Positions 998 to 44,876 of a stretch of 53,270 nucleotides of DNA are shown one piece after another. Position 1 is the first letter of the stretch; each line of letters begins with the position of its first letter. Location of the stretch: the NCBI GenBank assembly GCA_027459745.1, contig DAIDHL010000008.1, positions 1 through 53,270 of the forward strand, in the 5' to 3' direction. This DNA is from Candidatus Levyibacteriota bacterium. GTDB taxonomy: Bacteria; Patescibacteriota; Microgenomatia; Levybacterales; UBA12049. Both the position numbers and the translations under genes were made by a program. The notes beneath the pieces are model-generated. The model had not been told where the DNA came from and did not search any database. It saw only the letters and a list, made by a program, of their open reading frames with translations.

Positions 998-1026
998 TTG
1001 ATTGCTTTAATCCAATCCGGTATAAT
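998..1026 (+). promoter_or_regulatory. Sigma70-type promoter upstream of tRNA-Gln
   Basis: TTGATT-N17-TATAAT. Confidence 0.5.
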
Positions 1027-1121
1027 TATAAGATACATTTTAATACATCTTCTTGGACATAAAGAAATATTCACAGAAGATAATTATATGTAATCTTGTT
1101 TTAAGAAAAATATTTTTATAT

Positions 1122-1192
1122 TGTCGAGTCGTCTAATGGTAGGACAACAGACTTTGGATCTGTTTATTCTGGTTCGAATCCAGGCTCGACAG
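1122..1192 (+). tRNA. tRNA-Gln(TTG), CCA not encoded
   Basis: Acceptor stem TGTCGAG/CTCGACA, D arm GTCTAATGGTAGGAC, anticodon arm ACAGA-CTTTGGA-TCTGT, T arm CTGG-TTCGAAT-CCAG, discriminator G. Confidence 0.95.
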
Positions 1193-2861
1193 CTAACATA
1201 CCTTGACCAGACATAAAATCATCGTTTAGCTTGATACACTGGGCTAATTTAGGTGTTCCAGAAAGTATTTCCGCATAGGTTGGGGCTTCATCGAATAAAA
1301 CCCCAAAATAGGCTGCTTTTTGTACAGAATCCGTGCCTAAAATGAGTAATTCTTCTAAGTGTTCCAGAAAATATTTGATGTAGACCATAACTACCTTCAT
1401 ATCTATTGGCTGTGCGTCAACTGCTTTCTGTTTCTCACCTAAAAGATCAGTGAGCTGCTGTTCTGTTGTTATCAATTCCTGCTCCATATACTTAATCGCA
1501 ACTTCAGAGGTTAAAAACTTTATCTTATCAATTGTCTGCTTTGTCTGTGTTTTTAATTGCGTAATCCTGTCATCAATAGTAACTTCATCTTTTACGACTT
1601 CTATATTTCGCTTTTCCCACTCAGTATTTACATTATTAACCAGTGCGTCAATATATCCATCTGCAAGTCGAATGTTCTTCACAAACTTAAATATTGCATC
1701 TTCAAAATCTTTCTTCGGTACACGTAAATAATGCCCCCGCTTATTACAGTGATAGGCTGGATAGTATTTGCCCAGACGTCCTTTTGAGGCACTGCCAAAA
1801 AACGGTTTTTCACAGTGCGGGCACAATACATATTTTCTATATGGAAAATCAGGATTTCTTACGCCTTTCTTTAGTAGCCATTCGGGAGTTGGCTTTTTGT
1901 GTATTGTTACCTCACCGTTTTCTTCAGAAATAATAATTTTGCCATTATTTGCCTTGTTGAACATATCTATTGAGACTAATCCGTCATATTTAGCTTTTAC
2001 ACGCTGATTTGCCGTCCATTTTTCCATGCTTACTCCGGCGTAGATTGGATTTTGGATGAAGCGCCAAAACCCCTTGATATTTAGAGGATTTCCACCGTGT
2101 TCTTTTTTGATTTTGGTTCTATCGTGTGCATCTCTGATGTATTTCACTCTGGTAATAAAACCTAATTTGTTAATCTCCTCAACAATTTGGTGATCGTTGA
2201 GGGTTCCATGACACCGGAGCTCAAACATCTTAATAATAAATTGGGCTTCAGTCGGATGAGGTTTTAAGATGCAACGTTTTCCATTTGGTGTTTCTATTTT
2301 CTCAATGACATAACCGTAAGGAGCTTCCCTGACCCAATAACCCATCCGAGCATAACGAATTTCAGCTCCGATCATTCTTGACATAATATCCCGCATCTCG
2401 TCTTTTGCCCGTTCTGCTTCTAATATTTCGGCTTTTTTCGTAGGAGAATAGACACTCCAGTCAAAGGAGACACCTAAATGCTCTAATGTATTTACTTTTT
2501 GTGAGCTAATGATGCCGTAGATGTCGATAAGTTTAATATTGCAGTGATCAAGCTGCATTTTTAAATAATCGTAAGAGTATGAACCACCTCTAGTAAATCG
2601 GTCAATGGATTTAATAATAAAGAGCTGGATATTATTAGCGGGATGTTTACAGTAATTAACCGCTTCCTGCATAGGCTGCTGCTCTTTGGACGCAGATTCC
2701 ATAAAAACAAAGAACTTTTTAATTGTAATATTGTGAGTTTGAGCAAATCTTTCTAATTGTTCTTTTTGTGCCTCAGGAGAATCACCATCCGTTCCTTGTT
2801 TGGTTGATGATACACGGATAGCTGCGACTGCATTTTCAGGATTTGATAGGATTGTATTCAT
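1164..2861 (-). CDS. Large serine recombinase (integrase)
   Basis: N-terminal IRVSSTKQ catalytic Ser motif, SIDRFTR, APYGY recombinase domain, CPHC...YHC zinc ribbon, coiled coil; the last codons overlap the tRNA. Confidence 0.93.
   Translation of the reverse strand: MNTILSNPENAVAAIRVSSTKQGTDGDSPEAQKEQLERFAQTHNITIKKFFVFMESASKEQQPMQEAVNYCKHPANNIQLFIIKSIDRFTRGGSYSYDYLKMQLDHCNIKLIDIYGIISSQKVNTLEHLGVSFDWSVYSPTKKAEILEAERAKDEMRDIMSRMIGAEIRYARMGYWVREAPYGYVIEKIETPNGKRCILKPHPTEAQFIIKMFELRCHGTLNDHQIVEEINKLGFITRVKYIRDAHDRTKIKKEHGGNPLNIKGFWRFIQNPIYAGVSMEKWTANQRVKAKYDGLVSIDMFNKANNGKIIISEENGEVTIHKKPTPEWLLKKGVRNPDFPYRKYVLCPHCEKPFFGSASKGRLGKYYPAYHCNKRGHYLRVPKKDFEDAIFKFVKNIRLADGYIDALVNNVNTEWEKRNIEVVKDEVTIDDRITQLKTQTKQTIDKIKFLTSEVAIKYMEQELITTEQQLTDLLGEKQKAVDAQPIDMKVVMVYIKYFLEHLEELLILGTDSVQKAAYFGVLFDEAPTYAEILSGTPKLAQCIKLNDDFMSGQGMLAVEPGFEPE
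1181..1193 (+). repeat. attL (CAGGCTCGACAGC)
   Basis: tRNA 3' end; 11/13 identical to 41424-41436. Confidence 0.75.
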
Positions 2862-2862
2862 A

Positions 2863-3033
2863 TTATTTCATCTGAATTTTGGTTTTTAATATTACACTAC
2901 CGTTTCTCTGATCTTCCAGCATTTTATCGATGATAAGGTTGGCCAAAAAACAAATTCTTTCTTCTATTGAGAGAGTTGAAGTAATGGGGCGAGTATATGA
3001 TTTTTTGTTCAAAATACCTTTAATTCTACCCAT
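2863..3033 (-). CDS. 56-aa protein directly upstream of the integrase (candidate directionality factor/DNA-binding protein)
   Basis: Own translation: MGRIKGILNKKSYTRPITSTLSIEERICFLANLIIDKMLEDQRNGSVILKTKIQMK; stop is 1 nt before the integrase ATG; lies just after a promoter. Confidence 0.7.
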   Translation of the reverse strand: MGRIKGILNKKSYTRPITSTLSIEERICFLANLIIDKMLEDQRNGSVILKTKIQMK

Positions 3034-3038
3034 AATTG

Positions 3039-3087
3039 AATTATCCTTACAAGGATAATTGTACTATCCCTACAGGCATAATGTCAA
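3039..3087 (-). promoter_or_regulatory. Integrase-operon promoter with a palindromic operator pair
   Basis: Minus strand TTGACA(3087-3082)-N18-TACAAT(3063-3058); perfect IR AATTATCCTT-AC-AAGGATAATT at 3039-3060; degenerate copy TATCCCTACAGGCATA at 3065-3080. Confidence 0.7.
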
Positions 3088-3188
3088 GTAAGAAAACAGT
3101 TATAATTAACCACTGTTAATTCAATTTAATAGGTCTATATTAAATTAATAATCACATTTAGATCATAATGATATAATTATATATATCT

Positions 3189-5410: not shown

Positions 5411-8149
5411 ATGAAAGTGCAGGAAATCATTACTAATCTACAATTCGGCCATATTATTCGTGTGCCATTATTGTATATAGAGCATGAGATACAAGTAATG
5501 ACTACATCACAGCAACAAACGTATATTTTCATCCCTACAATTTATGTTTTTGTTGTAATCGCTCTAATAATTTATTTAGTTCGTAAAATCCTTATACTTC
5601 GAAGAAATTTTTTACAGGAATCTGTATTACTGGAAATAACTCCCCCTGCTTTTACAGAAAAATCCGCTTATACCACTGAACAATTATTCTCTGTTATTCA
5701 TAATGCAAAAAATGGGAACAAATTCATTAATTTGTTACTTGATAAAAAAACAGTATTTTCATTTGAAATTGTTTCAACACGAGAAAAAGGGATTCGGTAT
5801 GTTATACGAACGGATCTAAAACAAAAAGAAAATTTGAAACGGAAAATAACTTCTTATCTTCCAGGAGTTTTAGTTCATGAAGTAAAGGACTATTTGAAAA
5901 ATCCAATAGAGACATATAATTCATCTCGACAAATTATTGAATTAAAACTTAGTAGTCATTTTGCATATCCACTCGAGAAACAGAATATGCTTGATCAGCA
6001 TGATCCTGTGGCATATATAACAGGTATGATGACTCAGTTAAAGAAGGATGAGTTAATTGCCATACAAATTGTTCTTGCACCAATAAAAACAATTGAGGCA
6101 AAGAAGATATCTAATATGATTTTGAGACAGGAAGATGTGCTCTCGTATCTTGATTCAATTCGACCATCTGGTTTTGTAAAGGTATTGCTTGATGCTATAA
6201 AACTAATTGGACTGATTATCAACAAAGTAGGTCAAGAGTTACAATGGGCACTCACTGAAATGATGCATGGCAGTAGCAGTATGAGTTCTGTAAATATGTA
6301 CAGTACAACTGCTTATCAACAGCAATTGAAAGTAACCAAAATTAAACCAATGCGCCAACTCTCTTCTTTTGAAACAGAAATTGTGACTTCAATACAGGCA
6401 AAGATTACACAACCATTATTTGCAACTAGCATTAGAGTACTTGTTTCTGTAAGCTCTCAAGATGAATTACAAGAACGTGTGAATGGATTAATTTCATCAT
6501 TTGAGCCATTTAGTGTTCCACAATATCAGTCGCTTAAAACAAAGTGGAATTTCCCACCAGTTCTTATAAAACAGATTCGTGATCTTGTTTTTCAAAAACG
6601 ATTATTATCTCTTATCAATAACAAAAGCTCTTCTCTTCTCTCAGTTTCAGAAGTGGCAGATTTATATCATTTCCCTTTTTCTAACGTTACCCAAACAGAA
6701 AATATCGCAAAAAGCTATAGCTATGAGTTGCCAGCTCCTGTGTCTCTAAAACAAGGAACAAAATTTGATGTAATTTTTGGAAGAAATATGTATGCGGGCG
6801 TCGAAACACTTATTGGATTAACACCTGATCAACGAGCAAGACATATGGTCATTTTTGGAGGAACTGGAAATGGAAAAACAACGTTGATATCAGAAATGAT
6901 GCAGCAAGATATGCAAAATGGGAAAGGCCTATGTTTTATTGATCCGCATGGAGACGCAGCAGAACGTGCATTACAAATGATTCCCACGGATCGCGAAAAA
7001 GATGTCGTTTGGGTCGATCCGTATGACATAGATCGTCCTCTGGCAATTAATTTAATGGAGTTGACACCCAACTTAAAACAAAATGATGCACTACGCGAGA
7101 AAGAACGTGTTGCTGAAGGTATTGTATCCCTCTTCCGAAGAGTTTGTGCGAGTGATTTTTCTAAAGCTGGGAGTAATGCATTCCGTATTGAGAACACACT
7201 CCTCAACGCAATCTATACAGCATTTTACGTTCCCGATTGCACGCTCTTTACTATTTATGATTTGTTAAATGATCCGGTATTCCTCAGAAAAACAGTTGGA
7301 AGCATAGAGGATAAACGATTAAAAGATTTCTGGAAAAATGAATTTGGCAGGGCAGGAGATTATCAAATAGTAAAAATGGTTGGTGGTGTAACTGCAAGAA
7401 TTGGTAAGTTTCTGCATAGTGAATCAGCGCGAAGAATATTTGAGCAACCAAAATCAACGCTTCTATTTGATCATTTGATGGATAGTAAAAAGATAATCTT
7501 GTGTAATCTTTCAAAAGGAAAATTGAGTGAAGACATATCACAGGTTATCGGCACAGCTATCTTAACAAAAATGCAACTCTCTATTATGGCAAGAGCAACA
7601 ATACATGAATCAGAGCGAATACCTTTTTATCTATATATTGACGAATTCCAAAACTTTGCGAGCGATTATTTTGTCGGGATGTTAGCTGAAGCAAGAAAAT
7701 ATAAGTTACATATTGTTATAGTTGAACAGTCAACGAGTCAGCAACAAGATCAGAGCCTTATCAATATTATTCTTGCCAATGTGGCAATTATCATTTGTTT
7801 TAGAACAGCAAACCCAGCTGATGAGGATTTAATACTGCCACAATTTGCACCTATGGTGAAAAAGGGAGATATCATGAATCTTCCCTGGTTTCATTTTTTT
7901 ATTAAAATATATGCCGCTGTTGCACAAGAACCTTTCACCGGTGAAACAGTACCCCTTAGAGCTGGAGATGACAAAGAGAAAGGTAAAAGAATTATACAGC
8001 TATCTAGTCAAAAATATGGGAATATATATAAGCGTCTACATCCAAAAAGTGATGCACAACAGACACCCAACATTATCGATACAAAGGATAAAAATAATAA
8101 AACTATTACAGATACTACTATAATAAAGGGTTCACCTGATGAAAATTAA
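5411..8149 (+). CDS. Type IV coupling protein-like ATPase (VirD4/TrwB/TraD family) with long N-terminal domain
   Basis: N-terminal TM, RHMVIFGGTGNGKT Walker A, IDPHGD, LYIDEFQNF Walker B, EARKYKL; start uncertain. Confidence 0.85.
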   Translation: MKVQEIITNLQFGHIIRVPLLYIEHEIQVMTTSQQQTYIFIPTIYVFVVIALIIYLVRKILILRRNFLQESVLLEITPPAFTEKSAYTTEQLFSVIHNAKNGNKFINLLLDKKTVFSFEIVSTREKGIRYVIRTDLKQKENLKRKITSYLPGVLVHEVKDYLKNPIETYNSSRQIIELKLSSHFAYPLEKQNMLDQHDPVAYITGMMTQLKKDELIAIQIVLAPIKTIEAKKISNMILRQEDVLSYLDSIRPSGFVKVLLDAIKLIGLIINKVGQELQWALTEMMHGSSSMSSVNMYSTTAYQQQLKVTKIKPMRQLSSFETEIVTSIQAKITQPLFATSIRVLVSVSSQDELQERVNGLISSFEPFSVPQYQSLKTKWNFPPVLIKQIRDLVFQKRLLSLINNKSSSLLSVSEVADLYHFPFSNVTQTENIAKSYSYELPAPVSLKQGTKFDVIFGRNMYAGVETLIGLTPDQRARHMVIFGGTGNGKTTLISEMMQQDMQNGKGLCFIDPHGDAAERALQMIPTDREKDVVWVDPYDIDRPLAINLMELTPNLKQNDALREKERVAEGIVSLFRRVCASDFSKAGSNAFRIENTLLNAIYTAFYVPDCTLFTIYDLLNDPVFLRKTVGSIEDKRLKDFWKNEFGRAGDYQIVKMVGGVTARIGKFLHSESARRIFEQPKSTLLFDHLMDSKKIILCNLSKGKLSEDISQVIGTAILTKMQLSIMARATIHESERIPFYLYIDEFQNFASDYFVGMLAEARKYKLHIVIVEQSTSQQQDQSLINIILANVAIIICFRTANPADEDLILPQFAPMVKKGDIMNLPWFHFFIKIYAAVAQEPFTGETVPLRAGDDKEKGKRIIQLSSQKYGNIYKRLHPKSDAQQTPNIIDTKDKNNKTITDTTIIKGSPDEN

Positions 8150-8318: not shown

Positions 8319-9092
8319 ATGCTCTTACAATCTATCACTCCAAAACAATTACAAATCTTACGCCTTCTTTATACCTTCCGCTTTCTTACTACTACTCATT
8401 TTCAACTACTTATGCATCATAAAAGCCCTAGTCTTATTCAAGAATGGTTGAAAGATTTGGTAGAGAAAGGTTATATAGTCAGTTCATATTCTAGACAAAA
8501 GCGAAATGAAAATACCAAGCCGGCAATCTTTCATCTTGTTTCGCCTGCCAGACATATATTAAAAAAAGAAAAGGATATTGAGATTGAGGCATTACGATTA
8601 ATTTATAAAGAGAAACGAAAAGGGAAAAAGTTTATTGATCATTGTCTTACACTTGCTGATATCTATTTATTCTTTGAGAAAAAATTAAATAAAGATGAGA
8701 CACTTAAATTTTTTACACGAACGATGTTGACAGGATATGACTATTTTATCAAACCAATACCTGACGCATTTATTGCAATAAAAAATACAACTGGAACAAA
8801 GCGTTATTTTTTGGATTTGTTTGATGAATATACACCTCCATTTGTGTACAGAAAAAGAATTAGACAATACCTTGAATATTCCAGACAGGGTGACTGGGGC
8901 TTAAATACAAATCAAAACAAATTACCTGTTGTATATTTTGTCTGTCCTAATGAAACAGCGAAAAAGCATGTGTACTGGTATGGAAAAAGTATTATTGAAA
9001 AATCATTTGAAGAAGTGACTTTATTTGTCACGACCAAGGACACAATAAAATTTGCTAAAGAAACTCTTGATCCTTGGCAAAAAGTAGCATAA
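8319..9092 (+). CDS. Replication-relaxation (Replic_Relax) family protein, putative relaxase
   Basis: N-terminal wHTH (QILRLLYTFRFLTTTHF), HCL, PD...YFLD PD-(D/E)xK-like core; follows the coupling protein. Confidence 0.75.
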   Translation: MLLQSITPKQLQILRLLYTFRFLTTTHFQLLMHHKSPSLIQEWLKDLVEKGYIVSSYSRQKRNENTKPAIFHLVSPARHILKKEKDIEIEALRLIYKEKRKGKKFIDHCLTLADIYLFFEKKLNKDETLKFFTRTMLTGYDYFIKPIPDAFIAIKNTTGTKRYFLDLFDEYTPPFVYRKRIRQYLEYSRQGDWGLNTNQNKLPVVYFVCPNETAKKHVYWYGKSIIEKSFEEVTLFVTTKDTIKFAKETLDPWQKVA

Positions 9093-15526: not shown

Positions 15527-15550
15527 ATCTCCTACATAGTGTAGGAGATA
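15526..15550. promoter_or_regulatory. BlaI-type operator over the dsbA RBS
   Basis: TATCTCCTACA-TAG-TGTAGGAGATA, 11-bp perfect IR. Confidence 0.75.
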
Positions 15551-15563
15551 ATTATTCTCTCTG

Positions 15564-16565: not shown

Positions 16566-16929
16566 GTTTTTCAAGTATGTGCAACAATTCCTGTTTTTCA
16601 AGCTGGGGTAAGTTTTCTATACTTTCTGCAAACGATGCCATACCAGATGTTCCAAAAGATTCAAGATATTTTTTTAAAAATCCATCAACGACATTTCTCC
16701 CATAGGAGGCTTTCGTTATCTTTGCAGTAAACGTATGAGGAAATTTTATTATTTTTTTCTTTACAAATCCTTTTTGTTCGAGTCTTTGTAGAATTGTCCC
16801 AATCGTATTATATGCTAGTAACTTTTTTGAAGATTGTTTTTCCAACACATCACGAATTGAGACTTCGCCCTCCTCCCAGACGATATCCATGATTTCTAGT
16901 TCTAAATTACTAATTTCTTTATATGCCAT
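16549..16929 (-). CDS. BlaI/MecI/CopY family transcriptional repressor
   Basis: ISNLELEIMDIVW, LAYNTIGTILQRL..KG. Confidence 0.92.
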   Translation of the reverse strand: MAYKEISNLELEIMDIVWEEGEVSIRDVLEKQSSKKLLAYNTIGTILQRLEQKGFVKKKIIKFPHTFTAKITKASYGRNVVDGFLKKYLESFGTSGMASFAESIENLPQLEKQELLHILEKHEKHQ

Positions 16930-16947
16930 TCCTACATAGTGTAGGAA
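16929..16947. promoter_or_regulatory. BlaI-type operator (autoregulatory)
   Basis: TTCCTACA-TAG-TGTAGGAA abutting the blaI start codon. Confidence 0.78.
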
Positions 16948-16982
16948 AATACAATCAAAAGTGCAATAATGAATATACAGTT

Positions 16983-30535: not shown

Positions 30536-30542
30536 AGTGTCT

Positions 30543-30556
30543 CCTACATAGTGTAG
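30543..30556. promoter_or_regulatory. BlaI-type operator over the RBS
   Basis: CCTACA-TAG-TGTAG just upstream of the start at 30535. Confidence 0.7.
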
Positions 30557-30590
30557 TATTTAAAATTAGATTTTACAATATCGTAAATAA

Positions 30591-35161: not shown

Positions 35162-35503
35162 ATGAAAAAACTTATTTATCTCTCATCACTGTTATTAACA
35201 ATGCTTATTGCAGTCACACCAGTCTATGCGGCTTCAGCAGATGTTACAAAAATCCAAACCTTTATCGAAAGTATTACAGGTATTCTTACAACGTTAGCTA
35301 GTGCTGTTGCAATAGGATTTTTTGTCTGGGGTGGATTTGGATATATCACAAGTTCAGGTAACCCAGAACATTTAGATCGGTCTAAAAAAACACTGCTTTA
35401 TTCAGCCATTGGTCTAGCAATCGTTCTTGGTGCCTTTATGTTATCGAACATTGTGACACAAGTAGCAACTAGTGCTTTTGGAGCAGCTCCTACAGGGCAA
35501 TAA
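35162..35503 (+). CDS. TrbC/VirB2-like pilin
   Basis: Signal peptide, two hydrophobic helices around GGFGYITSSGNPE; strong RBS. Confidence 0.8.
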   Translation: MKKLIYLSSLLLTMLIAVTPVYAASADVTKIQTFIESITGILTTLASAVAIGFFVWGGFGYITSSGNPEHLDRSKKTLLYSAIGLAIVLGAFMLSNIVTQVATSAFGAAPTGQ

Positions 35504-35518
35504 GTTGATACTCACATT

Positions 35519-36820
35519 ATGAAAAAGATATTTAACAGTCTAGCCATACTGATTGGTTTTTTTATGTATGCTCCACCTGTTTTTGCAGTTGGTTCGGATA
35601 TACAAAATTACACATCCGATACATTACAAAGTATCATCCTCATCGCGTCCGCTTTAGCGGGCTTTTTTTTAGTTAAGGGAGGGTATTTCTATATTACCTC
35701 CTCTGGTAATCCTGAGAATTTAGAGAGCGCAAAACGAACGATTCGGAATGCGGTCATAGGTCTTCTATTGGTGTTAAGCGCAGGATTTATCGTGACACTC
35801 CTTCAAAATACATTTACTGGTCAAATAACGCTGAACAGTCCATCTTCCGTCTCACTTACTCCTATTGCCCCACAACTACCAACGGATGGCGTCGGTACAG
35901 TAATGATCAATGGCATTAATGCAATCATGCAAAATATTATTCAGAGTGCAACCAAACCACTCCTTGATGCGATCATTGGGTACTTAACAACTACTCCCAG
36001 TTTATTAAGTAATGCTGTTGTGTTTAACTTTTGGCTAGTCACCCTAGGCATTGCTGACGCGTTATTTGTTCTAGTCGTTGCAGTCTTGGGACTTCAAGTC
36101 ATGTCTGCGAGTAGCTTTGGATTTGAAGAGATAGAATTAAAACATTTACTCCCACGAATTAGCTTAGCATTCTTAGGAGCCAATGTTTCATTATTTTTAT
36201 GTGACTATGTGATTACTACCTGTAACGCACTTGTGTCAGAAGTACTTCATACGACCGGAGGATTAGATCACGCGTGGGTAGTCAATGCGGCAACGTACCA
36301 AGCAATTGGGAGTAACCAAGCTCCTATGATTACGCTTATTTTTTTACTCCTCTTTATTATTATCGCAATTATTCTTCTGTTTATGTATGTAGTACGCCTT
36401 ATTGTGATTGCATTATCTGGAGTACTTGCACCATTTATCTTCTTACTTTGGGCAATACCAAAATTCTCTGATTTTGCAGAAGCTGGCGTTCGAGGATATT
36501 TAGCCACTGTCTTTATAATATTTGTGCATGTCATAGTTATTCAACTTGCTGCTTCATTTCTTTCCCTTCCAGATCATGCAAATAACTCCATTTTAGCTGT
36601 CGTTATTGCCATAGGGTTATTTTTAACACTTTTAAAGATCCCAACCTGGTTATTCCAAATGATGTTTTATACAAGCCGAGTTGGCTCACTCAAACGCATG
36701 GGTGCACAGATGCTTAACGCCATGACAACACATAAAACAGAAGATAATACTATTGGTTCTCAACCCTCATATGGAGTAGATGCTGAGATACAAAAAAGAA
36801 GGAGATATATAAACGCATGA
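35519..36820 (+). CDS. Pilin domain fused to a VirB6/TrbL-like polytopic protein
   Basis: N-terminal pilin repeat, then about 6 TMs with R...L...AP...W..P. Confidence 0.72.
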   Translation: MKKIFNSLAILIGFFMYAPPVFAVGSDIQNYTSDTLQSIILIASALAGFFLVKGGYFYITSSGNPENLESAKRTIRNAVIGLLLVLSAGFIVTLLQNTFTGQITLNSPSSVSLTPIAPQLPTDGVGTVMINGINAIMQNIIQSATKPLLDAIIGYLTTTPSLLSNAVVFNFWLVTLGIADALFVLVVAVLGLQVMSASSFGFEEIELKHLLPRISLAFLGANVSLFLCDYVITTCNALVSEVLHTTGGLDHAWVVNAATYQAIGSNQAPMITLIFLLLFIIIAIILLFMYVVRLIVIALSGVLAPFIFLLWAIPKFSDFAEAGVRGYLATVFIIFVHVIVIQLAASFLSLPDHANNSILAVVIAIGLFLTLLKIPTWLFQMMFYTSRVGSLKRMGAQMLNAMTTHKTEDNTIGSQPSYGVDAEIQKRRRYINA

Positions 36821-37329
36821 GAACAAGAATAATTCCAGCACAAATTACAACCGTTGAAGATAAAATTGCTGGCAATATAAGTGTGACACAATTACTTATC
36901 CTGATGATCCCAGTTATATTTACGACCAGTGTATTTATTTTGTTGCCACCGCACATGCAGATTAATGCATATAAGCTGGTATTTTCGTCTATAGTTCTGA
37001 TTGTCAATCTTATACTCGCATTTAGATTTAAAGGGAAGGTTATCGCCCACTGGCTCATTATCCTTCTTCGTTACAATATGCGTCCACGATGGTATGTTTT
37101 AGATAAGAATGAATCATACCTTCGAACAATGCATGTACCAACACTAAAGAAATTACATAAACATGCGGCACAATCATCAAAGATTCAAGATGCCAAACCA
37201 GTTGTAAAAGATATTTCTTTTCCAGGACTTGTGCAACTTGAGCAATTAATCAAAGACCCAGCATATACCTTTTCATTAAAACTTAAGAAGAGAGGAGGAC
37301 TGCAAGTTGCTCTTAAACAAATCTCATAA
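36817..37329 (+). CDS. PrgI/VirB3-like protein
   Basis: IPAQITTVEDKIAG.IS..QL, 2 TMs; ATGA coupling. Confidence 0.78.
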   Translation: MRTRIIPAQITTVEDKIAGNISVTQLLILMIPVIFTTSVFILLPPHMQINAYKLVFSSIVLIVNLILAFRFKGKVIAHWLIILLRYNMRPRWYVLDKNESYLRTMHVPTLKKLHKHAAQSSKIQDAKPVVKDISFPGLVQLEQLIKDPAYTFSLKLKKRGGLQVALKQIS

Positions 37330-37921
37330 AGCGTCAAGTAGACGACAAATTCAAATCAAAGAAGTAAAAGATAACATATTGGTACTACCTGATAACCAAT
37401 ATCGGTTAATACTGGAAACAAGTAGTATTAATTTTGAATTAAAAAGTGAGGAAGAACAAGATGTCTTGATTGATAGTTTCCAAAGCTTTTTGAATGCCCT
37501 TCCCTGTCCTCTCCAAATGCTTATTCGTGTTCGAGAAATAGATATAGAAGCATATATCGAACAAATAACACATAACAAAAATACAGAGAAAGAAGAAGTG
37601 TATAGAGAACAAATTGACAGCTACGCTGCTTTTATTAGAAAAGTTGTTTCTGGAAATAAAATTCTATCCCGTCGTTTCTATGTGGTGATTCCATATCACT
37701 CAATTGATCGAAAACACGACTTTTCAATCATTAGCGAGCATCTTAATTTGTCACGAGATATTGTTATGCGAGGTATTGAAAAATTAGGAATGAAAGCACG
37801 TCAGCTTAACAGTATCGAACTTCTCGATTTATTTTATTCGTTCTATAACCAAACAGCGAGCAAGACTCAGGAACTAAAAGGACAAACAATCGAAACAATT
37901 CTACAAAATACCTATGCTTAA
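37307..37921 (+). CDS. TraC/VirB4 N-terminal-like protein
   Basis: SSINFELKSEEEQ...FLNAL..P.Q, RRFYVVIP. Confidence 0.72.
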   Translation: MLLNKSHKASSRRQIQIKEVKDNILVLPDNQYRLILETSSINFELKSEEEQDVLIDSFQSFLNALPCPLQMLIRVREIDIEAYIEQITHNKNTEKEEVYREQIDSYAAFIRKVVSGNKILSRRFYVVIPYHSIDRKHDFSIISEHLNLSRDIVMRGIEKLGMKARQLNSIELLDLFYSFYNQTASKTQELKGQTIETILQNTYA

Positions 37922-39749
37922 CTTACCACAATTACCAATTGCACAGTTACAAAGAATTGATTTGCAAAAGATGCAAAAGCAATTAAGAAGGAAAATAAAA
38001 AAGTATTTGAGCAAAAAAGAGAAACTCAAACAATCATTCCAGTTTAACTTTGGAGAGCAAGATCAGATTGATCTACTTTCGTACTCAGGGCTTGAGGAGA
38101 ACTCGTCATATCTGCAAATGGATGATAAATTTGTTCGAACACTTTTTATCTCAGGCTATCCATACGTCGCAACAACGGGCTGGCTCAATATGCTGATTAA
38201 CTTTAATTACAATAGTGATATCTCTTATCACATAGAGCAAATTGATCCGCTCCTCGCACTTCCAAAACTAACAAGAAAAATAACAGAGCTTGAAGCAACA
38301 AAACGAGCAATGATCAAAAGTGGAAAAATAATAGGATCAGAAATTACAGATCCTTTAGATTCAGCTATTACACTAAAAGATAAGATTCTGAGAGGACAGG
38401 AAAAACTGTTTCAAATTTCAATATATATAACTCTCACGTCAGATAGCTTGAATGAACTCAATAAAGTATCGACAATTCTGCAAACCGTGATGTCCAGTCG
38501 TTTGTTCTACATTAAGTCTGCAACATTTCAGCAGCTCGAAGGATTACAATCAACACTTCCTCGTGGAGAAAATATATTATTACAGAGACGGAATTTAGAT
38601 AGTTCAAGTGCAGCCTTAACATTTCCATTTATCTCAAGTGAGTTAGTCCAGGAATCAGGGATTTTATATGGGATTAATCGATCAAATAACTCTTTAGTTA
38701 TTATTGATAGGTATTCACTCAATAATGCTAATGCAATTGTCTTTGCACAGTCAGGTAGTGGAAAAAGTTACACAGCTAAAGTGGAAATTCTTCGTCATTT
38801 AATGCAAGGAACCAAAGTGATTGTCATTGATCCTGAGCGGGAATATAAACAGTTGGCTCAGTCAGTCAACGGTACATATATTAAATTATCGAGTACCTCA
38901 AAAGAAAAAATAAACCCATTTGACTTTTCTCTCCACTCTCATGCCAATGAAGCAACGCTTGCTGAACATGTCCAGGATCTAACAGAGATCATTGCGCTTA
39001 TGGTCGGTAGTTTATCGCCAGAAGAGAGAGCAATTGTTGATAAGGCAATACTTCAGACATATAAAAATTTTGGCTTCACACTTACTGGGAAGCGAAAACT
39101 AAAAAGTAAAAAAGAAGAATTCCCATTACTTATCGATCTATATACAGTTCTTAAGCATATGAAGCAAAAAGATTTATGTGCACGTCTTGAGCGGTTCGTC
39201 AAAGGATCTTTGGCAAGTGTGTTTAATGAGCAAACGAATATAGAGCTAGATAATCGATTGGTTATTTTTGATATCAAAGATCTTCATGAATCGTTACGCC
39301 AAATTATGATGATAGCAATTGCTAATTTTGTGAATACACAAGTGAAATCTTTTCCACAAAAGAGAATGTTGGTGATTGATGAAGGTTGGATGCTATTAGA
39401 ACACGTTGAATCAGCAAGATTTATCGCAGGACTTGTCAGAAGAGCAAGAAAATATTATTTGGGAGTGACTATTATTTCCCAACAAGCCAATGATTTCTTA
39501 AGCCAAGATTATGGTCGAGCAATTGCCAGTCAATCCAGTCTTCGAGTTCTGATGCGACAAGACACAACAACTATTAAAAAAGTTGCTCAAGAATTTCATC
39601 TTAGTGAATATGAACAACAGTTCCTTCTTACCTGTGATCGCGGAGAAGCATTAATTATTGCAGATCAGAATCATGTCGCCGTCAAAGTCGTCGCTAGTGA
39701 GAAAGAACATCCATTGCTGACAACTGATCCTAAGGAGATTTATCTTTAG
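37914..39749 (+). CDS. virB4: VirB4-like conjugative ATPase
   Basis: AQSGSGKS, IDPEREY, INPF, IDEGW, RRARKY, ISQ. Confidence 0.88.
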   Translation: MLNLPQLPIAQLQRIDLQKMQKQLRRKIKKYLSKKEKLKQSFQFNFGEQDQIDLLSYSGLEENSSYLQMDDKFVRTLFISGYPYVATTGWLNMLINFNYNSDISYHIEQIDPLLALPKLTRKITELEATKRAMIKSGKIIGSEITDPLDSAITLKDKILRGQEKLFQISIYITLTSDSLNELNKVSTILQTVMSSRLFYIKSATFQQLEGLQSTLPRGENILLQRRNLDSSSAALTFPFISSELVQESGILYGINRSNNSLVIIDRYSLNNANAIVFAQSGSGKSYTAKVEILRHLMQGTKVIVIDPEREYKQLAQSVNGTYIKLSSTSKEKINPFDFSLHSHANEATLAEHVQDLTEIIALMVGSLSPEERAIVDKAILQTYKNFGFTLTGKRKLKSKKEEFPLLIDLYTVLKHMKQKDLCARLERFVKGSLASVFNEQTNIELDNRLVIFDIKDLHESLRQIMMIAIANFVNTQVKSFPQKRMLVIDEGWMLLEHVESARFIAGLVRRARKYYLGVTIISQQANDFLSQDYGRAIASQSSLRVLMRQDTTTIKKVAQEFHLSEYEQQFLLTCDRGEALIIADQNHVAVKVVASEKEHPLLTTDPKEIYL

Positions 39750-39752
39750 ACC

Positions 39753-40352
39753 ATGTCCACTGTCTTATCATTTTGGCTTGAACTTCGATTATTACTCATA
39801 ACATTCTTTATCGTTCTTATCGTACTTCCGATACTCGCGATGCTGACGCTCACTAACTTTGGTTTCCAGGATGTGTCCGATAAATTAGTTACTGTTAACG
39901 CTAAAAATCATACGGTTGAAATTCATGATTTAGATGGAACAACTACAACAATTACTGAAACAATGATTTGGCCAGTAAATGGTGTCGTCACACTTGAATT
40001 TGGTCAACCTGATCCTCCATATCAACCACTACATACTGGGATTGATATAGCCAATCCTGAGGGCAAACAAGGTGATTCTATTCACCCTTTCATGAAAGGT
40101 ACCGTGATCTATGCAGGTGAGGACTTATCTGGTTATGGCAAGCATGTGATTATTAATAATGGTAATAACATAACGAGTCTTTATGGACATATGAGCGCAA
40201 TCAATTCAAAAGTAGGTGCAACAGTGAATACGAGTGAAGTTATCGGCTATGAAGGTCAAACCGGCTGGGCAACCGGTCCCCACGTGCATTTTCAAATCAA
40301 TGTATACGGTATTCCTGTTAACCCGAGAACGTTTTTAATGGGAAATCCATAA
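39753..40352 (+). CDS. M23 family peptidase
   Basis: HTGID, YGH, TGPHVHF. Confidence 0.9.
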   Translation: MSTVLSFWLELRLLLITFFIVLIVLPILAMLTLTNFGFQDVSDKLVTVNAKNHTVEIHDLDGTTTTITETMIWPVNGVVTLEFGQPDPPYQPLHTGIDIANPEGKQGDSIHPFMKGTVIYAGEDLSGYGKHVIINNGNNITSLYGHMSAINSKVGATVNTSEVIGYEGQTGWATGPHVHFQINVYGIPVNPRTFLMGNP

Positions 40353-40407
40353 TATTGTTCAGAAATACAAAAAACAATTCAAAGTTGTATAATTATGAGA
40401 CTCATCT

Positions 40408-40620
40408 ATGAATAATAACTATGCAATTAAACTTGGTCAGAAACTGAAGGATTTCCGACTTAAAAAGAATTTGACTCAAATTGAGATTGCTGAAAAAGCT
40501 GAAATAAACAGTAATTACTATGCTAAAGTTGAGCGTGGTGAAGTTAAGGTAAGTATGGAGTTAGCATCTAAAATTGCAAAAGTATTAGGCGTGAAACTTG
40601 AAGATATAAAACCCTCCTGA
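40408..40620 (+). CDS. XRE family HTH regulator
   Basis: LTQ.EIAEKA.I..NYYAKVERG. Confidence 0.9.
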   Translation: MNNNYAIKLGQKLKDFRLKKNLTQIEIAEKAEINSNYYAKVERGEVKVSMELASKIAKVLGVKLEDIKPS

Positions 40621-40627
40621 AGCTGTT

Positions 40628-40837
40628 TTAATTTATACTTTTCTTTTCATTCTGTAATTTTTTATACATATCTACCAATTTTTCAAAGTCAGTATGTGCA
40701 AGTAGATGAATATTCGCTTGAAGATACTCCAAAATTTGTATTGCCATTTCCGGTGTAGCATGTTCGGGGTCTGTACGTTTTAAAATTCCAAGTACAATAT
40801 CAATATCCTTTTCATTTATCTCGTATTTTTCAGCCAT
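40628..40837 (-). CDS. Hypothetical 69-aa protein
   Basis: ORF track; DPEHATPEMA; co-oriented with the PLD gene. Confidence 0.65.
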   Translation of the reverse strand: MAEKYEINEKDIDIVLGILKRTDPEHATPEMAIQILEYLQANIHLLAHTDFEKLVDMYKKLQNEKKSIN

Positions 40838-40859
40838 ATTGCCTGTAGTATATCAGTAA

Positions 40860-41300
40860 TTATAGAAATTTTTCAAATTTTAAGAAATCAAACATTTCTT
40901 GAGCTGATTGTTTCCCTTCAGTTCTTCTCATAATTTCCCTGCTATATGTTTGAGAAAGGATATTTAAGCTTCCTTCCCAAAGAATAGTTCTATCAATGAT
41001 TGCAAGTTTTCGATGATGATTGCCTAAACAGAGAAACGTTTGTACTCCCATTACTTCAAATTTTCGAATTATCGTTTCTGATTGTATCTCCATTCCCTCA
41101 AAATGTTCTTTTGGGTCTCTGGTAAAGATGTAAATTTCAACTCCTTTATTCAACAACTCTTGAAAAATTGGGAGAAATATATGTGCTCTTTCATACGTTA
41201 CAAACGGACTTTCGATAATTATCTCTTTTTTGCAATTTCTCACATCTTTTAGAAATGCATCGTAGAAGGTTTTCTCATCAAAAAGAGCGGAGTTAAACAT
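40860..41300 (-). CDS. Single-domain phospholipase D family (Nuc-like) protein
   Basis: IESPFV, HRKLAIID...GSLN (HxKxxxxD); RBS AAGGAGG. Confidence 0.87.
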   Translation of the reverse strand: MFNSALFDEKTFYDAFLKDVRNCKKEIIIESPFVTYERAHIFLPIFQELLNKGVEIYIFTRDPKEHFEGMEIQSETIIRKFEVMGVQTFLCLGNHHRKLAIIDRTILWEGSLNILSQTYSREIMRRTEGKQSAQEMFDFLKFEKFL

Positions 41301-41436
41301 GACCGTCCTCCTTTTCTAATAAAGAAATAATAGATACCTTTCCGTTATAATATGTAAACCCTAATTTCCTCAGTTTTTCAAAGGTATTGAGTAAGCTAGG
41401 CACGATTTGGTTCCACCTACGGGCAAGCTCGCCAGC
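41293..41436 (-). other. Orphan 3' segment of the integrase gene (46 codons), joined on excision
   Basis: Frame A-GELARRWNQIVPSLL...EDGHV* is in register with integrase Ala557 across the att repeat; its stop overlaps the PLD start. Confidence 0.7.
41424..41436 (+). repeat. attR (CAAGCTCGCCAGC)
   Basis: 11/13 match to attL, at the end of the element backbone. Confidence 0.72.
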
Positions 41437-41548
41437 AGCCTCACCCCAGTCGCCTCTTATTATAACTTCTAGCTGTATAAACCTTTTTACCTGTTGATTA
41501 AATTTGTAGCGAAATAAAGAAGTAAATTTTCCACAAGACAAAATATTC

Positions 41549-42184
41549 CTAGATATACTGTTCCTTTTTTAAAAAATCCATGACCACATTATATATGAGT
41601 TCATGACCACGTGAATTTGGATGTAAACCGTCAAACATGAGTCTTTCAAGGATTGTGTCATTAAATTCTTTGTATATATCAATGAAATCTAGGTTGTACT
41701 GAATAGTCATTGCTCGAATTACCTCATCATACTTTTTAATTTCTCGATTTAAGAAAACGTGAGTTTTTGGCCAAGGCATACTCTTCAACTTATCTTCGTC
41801 TACGGGTGTGAGTCCTAAGCATAGAACATTTTTTGAATAATTTTTTGATTGCTTAATAAAGAATTCAAGATTAGCTTGATAGTTCTTAATTGGAATTCGA
41901 TTTGTTTGATTCGCTACTTCTAGTAAAGAGTCGTTGACTCCGACAGAGAAAATAATAAGTTTAATGTCATCTCCGCCACTTCTGGCTTTCATTTCGTTAT
42001 CAAACCTGATTCGTACATCCTGGGAGGTATCGCCCGCTATGCCAAGGGAATAGATTTCGAAACTAGGAGCAGAGCCATGAAGTATCTTTCTGTCGGAATT
42101 CTTTCTAAGACGTGACGTCCAGCCACCTTCTTCGTCATAGGCTCCCCACACAATACTGTCACCAAAAATAATGATCTTACTCAT
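41549..42184 (-). CDS. SGNH/GDSL hydrolase
   Basis: FGDSI, G..GD, G.ND, DGLHP; start likely 42184. Confidence 0.88.
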   Translation of the reverse strand: MSKIIIFGDSIVWGAYDEEGGWTSRLRKNSDRKILHGSAPSFEIYSLGIAGDTSQDVRIRFDNEMKARSGGDDIKLIIFSVGVNDSLLEVANQTNRIPIKNYQANLEFFIKQSKNYSKNVLCLGLTPVDEDKLKSMPWPKTHVFLNREIKKYDEVIRAMTIQYNLDFIDIYKEFNDTILERLMFDGLHPNSRGHELIYNVVMDFLKKEQYI

Positions 42185-44876
42185 ATACAAAATTATCAGC
42201 TGCTGTATGTTTTTGTGGCAAATTGTATATCTGGTTAAATATCGTTGCCCAAACGTCCCGTTCATCTACCTGAACAGTTGTCCAGTTATGGGAATCTTTA
42301 CTCGGTGTTATTGTCCCTGTCATCTCGGGTAAATTTAACTCATTGCTTAAAATTACCATACCTCCACCTTGTCCGTGGTCTGTACCATTACTGCCATTAA
42401 TTTTGTCAGTTCTACCAAACTCTGAGAAAAAAACTATAGTAAGTTTTGTCTTTGATTTCTCAGTGTTATAAAAATTGGTGAAGTTAGTAAATAAATCACT
42501 TACTTGTTTATTTAAAAGCAAGTCTTCATGTGCATGATGATCATAGGTGCCATCTGCATATAGATAATAAGTATTGCCGATATTATTTGTGATAAGTTTT
42601 TCCAAAAACGGAGTTTGTGTAGCATTTGTTCCTCCCGGTGTTCCCTTTCCTCCTTGGGATATGTCTTCTTTAGCTAGTTTATCAAGCAGTAGCGCTTGAG
42701 TATAATATACTGCCAATGTTTTGGGGAAAGATCTACTGTTTAATATCTGCTTAAGATAATTTTCTCTAACAGTGATATCCTGACTGTAAATACTTTTTCT
42801 TTTAACTACCGGGTAGAGTGTTAAATTAGCTGATCCAATTTGTAAACTTGGTGCGCCATTGGTCATCACGGGCGCAGTATTAGTCAGTGTAATAAGACTG
42901 GTGGCAGGTTCTGCTTTGGTCAGTTGGCCTAAGATTCCAGTCTGGTTTTGATTATCACCTGTTTCCATTTGAATACCTGCGATATCATGGGCTCGTGAAT
43001 GGTTTGGGAGTCCAACAGATGAAACTAAAAATGCTTCTTTGGATTTAAGCAGTGGTAAAATACTTGATGCAGCGTTGTTGAGCATATATCCATTTCCAAG
43101 AGAGGTAGCGTTTGATGAATTAAGAGCCATTTGTTTTCTGTTTGAATTATATGCAGGGTCAGTCGTATTTGCCCAAATTCCTTGAAAATCCCAACCTCCC
43201 CTCACCCTCACAACAATAAGTTTAGATTGTGTTCCGCCATTAATTTGTGTAATCGGTACAAAAGCTATTGCTTGTGTATCACCAGATTGGGCAAGAAATT
43301 CCGGTTGGATAAACATCAAACTTAATAGTCCGGGAAGTTTTGATTGAAGATATTTAGGATCGTTTATATTAAAAGTAACAGGCTTATTGGCATCACTGGT
43401 TGTCAGGTATTTTTGAAGTGACTGTTGTACGCTTGGGGGAAGTGTTTTTCCTAAATATAGCTGCATAGAAAGAACGTTTATAAGATCGGATGGGGTATGA
43501 ATCGAATTGGGATTGGAAATAAGATGGGAAAACACTGCGGAAATATCAGCTGAGGACATTTTATGCAAAAGTGCGTCTGTGTCGGCAATCCATCTGTTCA
43601 TAATAGTGCCTGAATAGAAGAGAATATTTGTATTAAATCCGGGTCTGCCGAAAATACTTCCGGGACTGTAAGGCCGGAAATCTAAATCTGTCAGTTCTTG
43701 AGAATTTGGAATAACATTGTAATTATTCATTCCCCATAATAGCGTATAGTACGAACTGACAAGATCCATAGGTGTTTTGAATCTGTCAGCTGACATGTAT
43801 TGTGGTTCATACATAATATTGGATGCAAACAGCCATTTTATAGAAGGTAAAAGTTCAAAATTGTTCTGTATAATCACATTGGAAAAGGCTGTAATATCGG
43901 CATCTGTTGGATTATCTGTTACGTAATAATGCAAAAGTTTATTAGCCAAAAATTCACCTGCTTGAGTTTTCCGTTGTTGCACAATAAAATCAATGGCGCC
44001 CTGTGGATTATTGTATTCCTGGCCTAAAAAGGGTTTGTCCGGGACAAAGTGTCTTTTCCCGTTGTATGAAACTATATGATTAAGCTTATCAGCTGTGAAC
44101 CCGGTAAGGATATAAGCAAGACTGTTTACATCCTGATCTGAATAGTTTGGAGTTGTTTTGTTATGGTCAAGTGGAGTGTATTGTCCTATTAAAAAAAGTT
44201 GCATGAGCTCTCTTGCGAAATTCTCATTGGGATTTTTGGCTGTTGAAGCAGTTAAATCCAAATACTGTGCCATGGCATAATTATTCTCTACATTTTTTAC
44301 AATATCTATATAATTTCCCAAAGCATTGTCATAAAGCATCTGGTGGAGTATTTTTGCATCATCAAGAGTTATCATTTTGCCTTTTTCAGGTGCATCAACA
44401 GAGAAAACATTTTCCCATAAATAATAAAGCTTGCATTGTACCCGATTTGGATCATGTACCATTTGATACGCATATAGTGTATCTTCATAAGCTACTTGAG
44501 TTTTATAACTATTCTTTTTGCTTTCAAGTGATTGTAGTCCCTGGTTATATTGCTCCTGTTCCTGTTGACTAGGGGTAGTAAAGATAAGATTTACTGCATT
44601 TTGTGCCGAGCCTGCTTGAGTAAGTGCCTGGATATCGCTGTTTGTGGGGTTAAGGTATACCCGACTTGCTAAGTATGAAGCCTTGGTACTTGTCCAGCTT
44701 GTGTTTGTTGCAAAAGGAACATTTGAGAGAATTTGTAATCCCTTCAAGAGAAAATATAGAGCAAAAATAATTACGATTGAAGGTAAAATAACTTTTGTTA
44801 TCTTTAATACTTTCTCGGGTAAGAAACTTTTAGAATTGTTTAATATACCCTGATAAGAAGCTTTTATTTTATCCAT
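42177..44876 (-). CDS. DUF1800-DUF1501 fusion protein, membrane anchored
   Basis: PNENFARELMQLF (DUF1800); RGGWD, HSRAH, YDHH, SEFGRT...GTDHG (DUF1501). Confidence 0.8.
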   Translation of the reverse strand: MDKIKASYQGILNNSKSFLPEKVLKITKVILPSIVIIFALYFLLKGLQILSNVPFATNTSWTSTKASYLASRVYLNPTNSDIQALTQAGSAQNAVNLIFTTPSQQEQEQYNQGLQSLESKKNSYKTQVAYEDTLYAYQMVHDPNRVQCKLYYLWENVFSVDAPEKGKMITLDDAKILHQMLYDNALGNYIDIVKNVENNYAMAQYLDLTASTAKNPNENFARELMQLFLIGQYTPLDHNKTTPNYSDQDVNSLAYILTGFTADKLNHIVSYNGKRHFVPDKPFLGQEYNNPQGAIDFIVQQRKTQAGEFLANKLLHYYVTDNPTDADITAFSNVIIQNNFELLPSIKWLFASNIMYEPQYMSADRFKTPMDLVSSYYTLLWGMNNYNVIPNSQELTDLDFRPYSPGSIFGRPGFNTNILFYSGTIMNRWIADTDALLHKMSSADISAVFSHLISNPNSIHTPSDLINVLSMQLYLGKTLPPSVQQSLQKYLTTSDANKPVTFNINDPKYLQSKLPGLLSLMFIQPEFLAQSGDTQAIAFVPITQINGGTQSKLIVVRVRGGWDFQGIWANTTDPAYNSNRKQMALNSSNATSLGNGYMLNNAASSILPLLKSKEAFLVSSVGLPNHSRAHDIAGIQMETGDNQNQTGILGQLTKAEPATSLITLTNTAPVMTNGAPSLQIGSANLTLYPVVKRKSIYSQDITVRENYLKQILNSRSFPKTLAVYYTQALLLDKLAKEDISQGGKGTPGGTNATQTPFLEKLITNNIGNTYYLYADGTYDHHAHEDLLLNKQVSDLFTNFTNFYNTEKSKTKLTIVFFSEFGRTDKINGSNGTDHGQGGGMVILSNELNLPEMTGTITPSKDSHNWTTVQVDERDVWATIFNQIYNLPQKHTAADNFVYE

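Follow-up and report, generated by a model that had tools for sequence, protein, structure and literature searches.

Two kinds of mobile element bear on the locus described here: those whose integrase gene spans the attachment site attP, and those in which circularization assembles an operon. To the second kind belongs Tn916, whose transfer genes were reportedly found by Celli and Trieu-Cuot in 1998 to be expressed only after circularization, from transcripts that run through the joined ends. The first kind includes the integrases of Mx8, which targets a tRNA gene, and of SSV. In the available parts of the reports, the Mx8 IntP/IntX and the “suicidal” SSV integrases are tyrosine recombinases whose genes contain attP, the reading frame extending across it, and integration alters or splits the protein (Islander paper, PMC4383910; PMC7253208). 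Among these named examples, DsiB of the Dehalococcoides ssrA islands is the only serine recombinase: the CcrB-like gene dsiB is stated, in the accessible portion of the paper, to always overlap attL, and the protein is suggested to be perhaps fully functional only on the circle (McMurdie et al., 2011; PMC3146451). Here, a 53,270-nucleotide (nt) window of a Candidatus Levyibacteriota genome (GCA_027459745.1, contig DAIDHL010000008.1; all coordinates are positions in this window) is analyzed, in which positions 1190-41436 are a 40.2-kb integrative conjugative element (ICE) of Patescibacteria (candidate phyla radiation, CPR) inserted at the 3' tip of tRNA-Gln(UUG). The gene of its large serine recombinase (LSR) is divided between the two ends of the element, and the part at the distal end overlaps the gene of a phospholipase D (PLD)-family nuclease, which is followed by a gene for a protein of 69 amino acids (aa).

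It is proposed, with a probability of roughly 60%, that this ICE is split through its own LSR gene upon integration, that the excised circle would restore a coupled unit of LSR, PLD and 69-aa genes, and that the latter two would be expressed mainly in the free state. The locus combines the two known kinds named above. As in Tn916, excision would join a promoter-like site near one end of the element to genes of the same orientation near the other, and consensus scans show no terminator-like site between them; in Tn916, however, the joint links intact genes through a common transcript, whereas here one coding sequence would be rebuilt and the next gene translationally coupled to it. The likeness to the ssrA islands lies in an LSR 3' end that is located over attL and runs antisense into a stable-RNA gene, and in the occurrence of tandem arrays. 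The islands differ by their tmRNA target and 20-bp direct repeat, as opposed to tRNA tips here, and by a second small serine recombinase, DsiA, in contrast to a family-less 56-aa open reading frame (ORF) here; the parts of the paper available show neither a conserved tail nor a gene coupled to a tail (PMC3146451). The Mx8 and SSV systems share the reading frame that crosses the attachment site but not the serine chemistry, and the corresponding portions of those reports mention no downstream gene that is coupled to the part of the integrase gene displaced by integration (PMC4383910, PMC7253208).

In the literature searched, supplements aside, neither the coupling of a gene to the tail of a split integrase nor the occurrence of this LSR family in Patescibacteria was found to be described, and the words recombinase, integrase and tRNA are absent from a paper on the type IV secretion systems (T4SS) of Patescibacteria. 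The accessible part of the Islander paper states that tRNA tips were unknown as a target of serine integrases (PMC4383910). The conserved coupling between integrase and nuclease was the part found to be undescribed. Genome engineering relies heavily on large serine integrases, whose choice of direction is an active question. A widespread LSR family of ultra-small bacteria that targets tRNA tips, has its own C-terminus changed by integration and shares its stop codon region with the start of a nuclease gene raises the questions of a recombinase switched by its own recombination product, of mobile elements that confine a potentially dangerous nuclease to the free state without a regulator, and of the role of PLD nucleases at the ends of Patescibacteria elements.

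The divided recombinase gene

As integrated, the LSR gene (1164..2861, minus strand) encodes 565 aa and was identified by Pfam (Resolvase, PF00239, E 1.3e-7, 32.2 bits against a cut-off of 23.3, residues 12-101) and by PHROG (PHROG 95, integrase, E 3.4e-37). A Zn_ribbon_recom match (E 0.0018) remained at 19 bits, under its cut-off of 25.3; PF07508 was not reported for this protein and is precomputed in several close homologues. The element encodes the body of the gene, 2861-1194 on the minus strand, while the final ~10 codons and the stop at 1164 are antisense to tRNA-Gln (1122..1193, plus strand, identified by ARAGORN), the single-copy tRNA-Gln with a UUG anticodon among the 46 tRNAs of the assembly, and the integrated protein ends with LAVEPGFEPE*. 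The same habit is found throughout the family: in 401 genomes of the phylum, 17 of 19 LSR-family matches run antisense into a tRNA gene (Gln, Ser, Glu, Gly, Phe, or Arg), and the motif G[FILV]EP, which corresponds to the antisense T-loop, is located within the last 60 residues of 87 of the best 120 LSR protein homologues.

At the opposite end of the element, a start-less open frame of 47 codons (41436-41296, minus strand) ends with ...EKEDGHV and is closed by a TAA at 41295-41293 in minus-strand reading, so that the tail as a whole covers 41293..41436. This orphan frame is the true 3' end of the LSR gene 2861-1194, cut off by integration, as had been implied in a preliminary description of the window made from its sequence. 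The assignment is based on the family habit, on layout and codon phase, on selection, and on natural in-frame proteins. The layout recurs in nine elements from eight genomes, in which a tail-PLD arrangement and an LSR gene running into a tRNA are located on the same strand of one contig at a distance of 11-40 kb. According to the proposed mechanism, the attachment site would be located within the LSR gene at a distance of 47 codons from the stop; upon integration, the LSR body would remain at attL, ending in ~10 tRNA-antisense codons, and the 47 tail codons would be left without a start at attR. The tail frame contains no ATG, and its sole listed start is a TTG at 41541, located in host-derived DNA 8 nt past the stop codon of a GDSL hydrolase gene, in agreement with the earlier view that the integrated tail has no convincing start.

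The recombination cores are GCTGTCGAGCC at attL (1183..1193, minus strand) and GCTGGCGAGCT at attR (41426..41436, minus strand), and both stand in the same codon phase. The crossover probably occurred in the GCTG at 1193-1190, where the tRNA has its discriminator/acceptor end: the two cores were compared, and the T at 1189 is required by the tRNA for its U3-A70 pair, which puts the exchange to the left of this T. No direct repeat linking the element ends was found. This agrees with the action of a serine recombinase, since LSRs typically use att sites that are short, differ from each other and share no long direct repeat, as do those found here. The locus was also recovered, as contigs, from four DNA sequencing runs of two studies (mine-drainage metagenomes and one other). 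One contig of run X1 matches the window exactly over 41231-41439, beyond which it continues with 23 unlike letters; the break lies 3 nt beyond the predicted core. These 23 letters matched neither the window, this genome nor 74 fetched loci, and the break indicates that the same element end adjoins other DNA in that sample. The positions 41440-41743, which the contigs of these runs leave uncovered, carry no weight in this respect.

Codon phase was compared in nine element pairs, taking the longest exact match between attL and attR as the core. The core was unique in six pairs, and in six out of six the tail was in the codon phase of the distal LSR (chance (1/3)^6 = 0.0014). The remaining three pairs (this window, the element of genome G358, and contig C11 of the same genome as the window) were tied, each with an in-phase candidate. 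Elements differ in the phase in which the LSR gene reads through the core, and the phase of the tail varies accordingly. A variant of the test that used the best 18-mer identity gave implausible cores in three of nine pairs, with six of nine in phase, and was replaced by the longest exact match.

Across the central 24 codons of the tail, the ratio of nonsynonymous to synonymous polymorphism (pN/pS) was 0.11-0.38 in each of the 15 pairs compared, and the synonymous sites were close to saturated. The tail codons are under purifying selection, and the low ratio implies that the tail is translated somewhere. A profile built from eight tails and compared with 1.84 billion representative proteins retrieved 333 protein clusters. 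Among the best 150 of these, 144 are at most 125 aa long and 118 matched at the very C-terminus, which is how start-less tails miscalled as small genes would look. In five of the 150 (P0142, P0214, P0244, P0251, and P0261), an LSR C-terminal domain directly precedes the tail in frame (phmmer E 5e-7 to 6e-17). Across the junction, P0251 reads KGMLAGELALRWNQIYPSL, as expected for this element, whose LSR body ends with ...GQGMLA and whose tail starts with AGELARRWNQ; the C-terminus of P0006 is KLAGELTLSWNQIF.

These results carry a warning for annotation, as at least 333 clusters of small “hypothetical proteins,” together with odd C-terminal extensions of host proteins, would represent cut-off integrase tails. 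P0160, P0220, and P0123 are host genes called through into tails at attR, examples being a 509-aa subtilase-like protein and a 207-aa protein that end in the conserved tail; host proteins can hence gain a foreign C-terminal extension, at least in annotation. A search of the tail against 5.8 billion proteins yielded three matches, each an ORF that starts in host DNA. P0126 (752 aa) matched the tail profile with E 7.7e-17 and contains nine copies of a ...QKLQELGFTW... motif, and the tail core EKLKxLGFTYY may resemble a known repeat domain, which we presume could be the helicase-associated domain.

It might be argued that the tail is not part of an integrase, but either a small gene in its own right or an arm of attP that is non-coding and happens to stay open. 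No whole integrase with the tail was retrieved by the profile search, the search of 5.8 billion proteins or the inspection of 65 metagenome loci, and at three chromosomal loci (L005, L016, and L022; found on contig C11 of the same genome and in G366 and G149) an LSR gene lies directly upstream of a tail-PLD pair in another frame. At two of these three loci, however, the tail shares its codon phase with a further LSR, located 18-28 kb away and running into the tRNA: in C11, by one of two tied core candidates, with a third LSR gene (234212-235894) that runs into tRNA-Glu at a distance of 27.6 kb, and in G149 with an LSR gene located 18 kb away and antisense into tRNA-Gly. The G366 locus runs off its contig. 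The C11 and G149 loci are tandem arrays at one tRNA, and C11, considered as a native LSR-PLD operon, was rejected on these grounds, its tail being out of frame with the adjacent LSR. Together with the missing start codon, the purifying selection on codons and the five natural ORFs that run from an LSR C-terminal domain into the tail, this renders a separate origin of the tail extremely improbable.

The C11 array of the genome analyzed here (201.6-238.4 kb; L005 corresponds to C11:200000-216000) comprises the 27.6-kb element at tRNA-Glu, with its tail-PLD pair at 208.3 kb, followed by a ~6-kb remnant with its own LSR gene, a relaxase-like gene and a DUF262-type gene. At 201676-201882 of the contig, an LSR C-terminal fragment is still in frame with its own tail, and a separate LSR gene (238390-236885) runs antisense into tRNA-Lys (236827-236899).

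Overlap with the nuclease gene and the predicted circular operon

The ATG of the PLD gene (40860..41300, minus strand) at 41300-41298 and the TAA of the tail share the 8-nt sequence ATGTTTAA (41300-41293), and a strong Shine-Dalgarno (SD) sequence, AAGGAGG (41307..41313, minus strand), is located 6 nt upstream of this ATG, encoded in the acidic end of the tail. The overlap and the ribosome binding site are present as the preliminary description had reported them, and conservation of the overlap in homologues, which it had named as its own test, was borne out in both data sets searched. At 19 of 31 PLD loci in genomes, the PLD gene is preceded by an open frame of 30 codons or more, the stop of which overlaps or directly adjoins the PLD start; the loci without such a frame are mainly those of more distant PLDs (at most 46% identity), and two of the 19 (L018 and L033) look spurious. 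A metagenome scan with the PLD alignment retrieved at least 595 relatives, the best 80 of which were taken, and 60 of the 65 with at least 200 nt of upstream sequence show the overlap. It takes the form ATGA in 26 of these 60, the 8-nt form ATGNNTAA/ATGNNTAG in 23, and other forms in 11. The frames upstream of the metagenomic PLD genes are recognizable tails of at least three types. The tail-PLD overlap is beyond chance and is a conserved trait of the family.

On the other side of the future junction, the LSR gene is preceded by a 56-aa ORF (2863..3033, minus strand) whose stop lies 1 nt before the LSR ATG. This ORF is conserved in ten of 18 other LSR loci (tblastn, E≤0.007) and matched no family in Pfam, PADLOC or PHROG. 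Upstream of it, a promoter-like TTGACA-18-TACAAT (3058..3087, minus strand) agrees with the consensus at 11 of 12 positions; the site was assigned by consensus match only. No terminator-like site was found by consensus scans of the minus strand in 1000-3400 and 40300-42400. The predicted order in the circle is promoter-like site, 56-aa ORF, full LSR gene, PLD gene and 69-aa gene, with gaps of 1, -8, and 22 nt. The sequence supports the view that excision would rebuild an integrase-nuclease operon, tightly packed and co-directional, in the gene order that the preliminary description had given. In the circle, the PLD would be translationally coupled to the integrase within one compact unit. In the chromosome, where LSR body and tail are ~40 kb apart, as had been pointed out, the PLD and 69-aa genes would be severed from the integrase promoter, and transcription would then be possible only from host DNA. 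We infer from this anatomy that production of the PLD and the 69-aa protein would largely coincide with that of full-length integrase, while the element is extrachromosomal or has newly arrived.

A number of observations weigh against this proposal. The automatic phase test was tied for this very window, the core common to attL and attR is short (4 + 5 nt), and the five in-frame LSR-tail proteins are fragments of 91-154 aa rather than whole integrases. A cognate LSR gene contiguous and in frame with the tail was found at 0 of the 65 metagenome loci, and neither an excised (attP) nor an empty (attB) form of this element was seen; relatives of the GDSL protein (at most 40% identity) occur in six of 41 related genomes, none of them beside tRNA-Gln. 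None of the public runs that hold the locus is recorded as RNA. The compared elements are related, and the counts given above are hence not independent. The region at the integrase end contains 13 promoter-like sites as compared with 9.9 (standard deviation 3.4) in shuffled sequences, which is not above the shuffles, and the same applies to the counts at the attR end. Expression from the chromosome is also conceivable: the host GDSL hydrolase gene (41549..42265, minus strand; Pfam), co-directional with tail and PLD, ends 249 nt upstream of the PLD without a predicted terminator, its 3' end contains a promoter-like site matching the consensus at ten of 12 positions (41615-41588), and the PLD might be expressed while integrated by read-through or from this site. 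A TATAAT at 41464-41459 (minus strand), previously put forward as a further source of such transcription, is present as a motif, but the promoter scan paired no -35 element with it. Finally, the strong and conserved SD sequence of the PLD gene makes coupling dispensable for its translation, and a PLD match was found in only ten of 17 genomes with the LSR family, seven being without.

Several of these points would be expected if the layout were incidental, with the PLD and 69-aa genes representing ordinary cargo that comes first after attP and is expressed by means of its own SD sequence in the integrated state as well, with transcripts from host read-through or from chance A+T-rich promoters, so that excision would make no relevant difference. 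Motifs of the SD type (GGAG, GAGG, or AGGA) are located within 14 nt of the PLD ATG in 57 of the 60 overlap loci, and the nearest upstream host ORF is co-directional at six of ten attR sites. In addition, the best PADLOC matches of the PLD are to the nuclease ends of defence proteins (C-terminus of MkoC, 1.2e-10; DrmC, 1.8e-4), and defence cargo is frequent at element ends. Loose cargo, however, would not be expected to keep its overlap with an LSR tail at 60 of 65 loci and with at least three unrelated tail types. The host ORF points in the opposite direction at four of the ten attR sites, so that there is no uniform host drive of the PLD, and a conserved promoter inside the tail can be dismissed because the synonymous sites of the tail are saturated. 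The incidental layout is therefore considered the less probable explanation, although one with a real chance of being correct.

The PLD nuclease and the 69-aa protein

The PLD gene encodes a single-HKD nuclease of 146 aa, assigned by Pfam (PLDc_2, E 7e-10), by its motif and by its predicted fold. Residues H96, K98, D103, G110, S111, and N113 of the HxK(x)4D and GSxN motifs are invariant in 16 sequences. The predicted model has a mean predicted local distance difference test (pLDDT) value of 90.7, and its nearest Foldseek neighbors are NucT, Zucchini, and Nuc (E 4e-9 to 1e-7, template modelling (TM) scores 0.68-0.77), with the lowest E-value, 4e-9, for NucT and a TM score of 0.77 at a root-mean-square deviation of 2.7 for Nuc (1BYR). 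Judged by this model, fold and catalytic residues are intact. By sequence, the PDB search gave just a weak Zucchini match (E 0.26), and tblastn at E 1e-8 found no match among 72,556 plasmids and none among 50,697 phage records. Nuc of pKM101 (1BYR), NucT of H. pylori (6EHI), and Zucchini/MitoPLD (4GGJ, 4GGK) resemble the modelled protein in fold, in a length of ~150 residues and in the presence of a single HxK(x)4D...GSxN motif. In sequence, the PLD is just 13-18% identical to them, and it stands apart by its gene, which overlaps the stop of an integrase gene, and by its pairing with a 69-aa protein. Nuc, which is carried by a conjugative plasmid, and NucT are exported proteins; unlike these, the PLD has no N-terminal signal peptide by eye. 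In two loci (L018 in G070:C4 and L040 in G176:C40), a PLD domain of this subfamily is located inside open frames of 1062 and 1036 residues, which may be fusions with larger Mokosh-like proteins.

The 69-aa gene (40628..40837, minus strand), the usual downstream neighbor of this PLD gene, encodes a protein with a predicted model of three helices (pLDDT 86). No match was found in Pfam, PADLOC, PHROG or the ESM Atlas, and no PDB fold at E≤0.001. Homologues begin 3-35 nt after the PLD gene in 11 of 16 genome loci. A complex prediction with two PLD copies and the 69-aa protein scored 0.02 against a mark of 0.32, a result that bears neither way on binding.

The PLD is an accessory protein, dispensable for the recombinase, given that seven of the 17 genomes with the LSR family show no PLD match. 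The preliminary description had suggested defence, addiction or DNA processing during transfer as possible roles. Under the favored reading, it would be an accessory DNA nuclease with a small partner that serves the element in its free phase, in competition or defence or in the maintenance of the circle, and at best guess it would not be a required recombination factor.

A closer bond with the integrase could be envisaged if the PLD and/or the 69-aa protein acted as a directionality factor, or if the PLD, by analogy with Tdp1, were a phosphodiesterase that clears dead-end covalent serine-DNA adducts from an essential tRNA gene. Tdp1 is a PLD-superfamily enzyme, and the known directionality factors of LSRs are diverse, small or enzyme-like proteins. 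The strict coupling to the integrase stop across LSR clades would fit such a partner, as would the occurrence of the PLD in the 11-kb G358 element, where no conjugation-gene query matched and the PLD tracks the LSR instead of transfer genes. A directionality factor is a required partner that co-occurs and co-evolves with its recombinase, and the PLD shows neither pattern: besides its absence from the seven genomes mentioned, the PLDs of the two elements in this genome are 57% identical while their LSRs are only 21-25% identical. The nearest folds are plain nucleases rather than Tdp1, and a promoter-less attR would be a poor place for an excision factor. A role as integrase partner is thus held to be very unlikely.

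As a second possibility, the two proteins might form an addiction pair, in which a PLD toxin and a small labile 69-aa antidote, both made from the circle, would kill daughter cells that lose the element. The pairing of nuclease and small protein in the 11 genome loci and an anatomy that would provide transcription from the integrase promoter in the circle only are compatible with this idea, and a precedent exists in MosAT of SXT, described in the available part of the report as a toxin-antitoxin pair that stabilizes the excised ICE (PMC2654960). The present genes resemble MosAT as a two-gene module that would serve an ICE when excised but have no sequence relation to it, and the rejoining of an operon is proposed here from the sequence. 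MosAT control is exerted by regulators. Searches of Pfam, PADLOC and PHROGs assigned neither the PLD nor the 69-aa protein to any toxin or antitoxin family on record, and a 69-aa homologue was found by tblastn after just 14 of 72 metagenomic PLD genes, a count of low sensitivity for so short a protein. Addiction by this pair appears distinctly unlikely.

The splitting of the gene could also act as a state switch of the recombinase itself. Integration would swap the conserved 47-residue tail for tRNA-antisense codons and at the same time unplug the coupled PLD gene and that of its partner from the integrase operon; the tail would set the direction of recombination in the role of a classical directionality factor, and the PLD would be a dedicated helper of the full-length enzyme, for example one that clears adducts at the essential single-copy tRNA gene, or a kill switch for cells without the circle. 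This extension of the proposed mechanism is regarded as unlikely.

Conjugation genes, cargo and flanking DNA

Directly beside the 69-aa gene and convergent with it, an XRE/C-protein-like helix-turn-helix (HTH) gene (40408..40620, plus strand) was identified (Pfam HTH_3, 1.8e-14; PADLOC control protein, 1.6e-13). It is a conserved neighbor of the module and is found beside the PLD in related loci. The adjoining T4SS block at the PLD end (35162..40352, plus strand; Pfam) comprises two VirB2-like pilins, a PrgI-like and a TraC-like protein, and includes genes for a VirB4-like ATPase (37914-39749) and an M23 peptidase (39753-40352), both on the plus strand and assigned by Pfam. At the integrase end, a PifA-like KAP NTPase (3189-5333, plus strand; Pfam; PADLOC PifA, E 1.1e-82) is followed by a T4SS coupling protein (5411-8149, plus strand; Pfam) and a candidate Replic_Relax relaxase (8319-9092, plus strand; Pfam). 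PifA is a protein by which the F plasmid excludes phages. Excision would leave the KAP NTPase gene just upstream of the region that contains the integrase promoter, but on the other strand.

Between the blocks of conjugation genes, the element carries ~25 kb of copper and heavy-metal resistance cargo. The region 9735-34716, which serves mostly metal homeostasis, encodes two heavy-metal P-type ATPases, a multicopper oxidase, cupredoxins, and CsoR-type and ArsR-type repressors, in addition to a cation diffusion facilitator (CDF) exporter, DsbD/thioredoxin proteins, and a BlaI/BlaR1-like pair. This metal cargo fits the mine-drainage origin of runs that hold the element. A palindrome of the TCTCCTACATAGTGTAGGAGA type occurs three times (15528-15551, 16928-16951, and 30540-30563), 5' of the BlaI/BlaR1-like and DsbD-cupredoxin genes, and its copies presumably resemble operator sites of CopY/BlaI-type repressors. 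In the host DNA beyond attR, positions 42177-44876 encode an 899-aa protein in which DUF1800 (E 1.1e-55) is fused to a C-terminal DUF1501 part, two domains that are usually encoded by adjacent genes.

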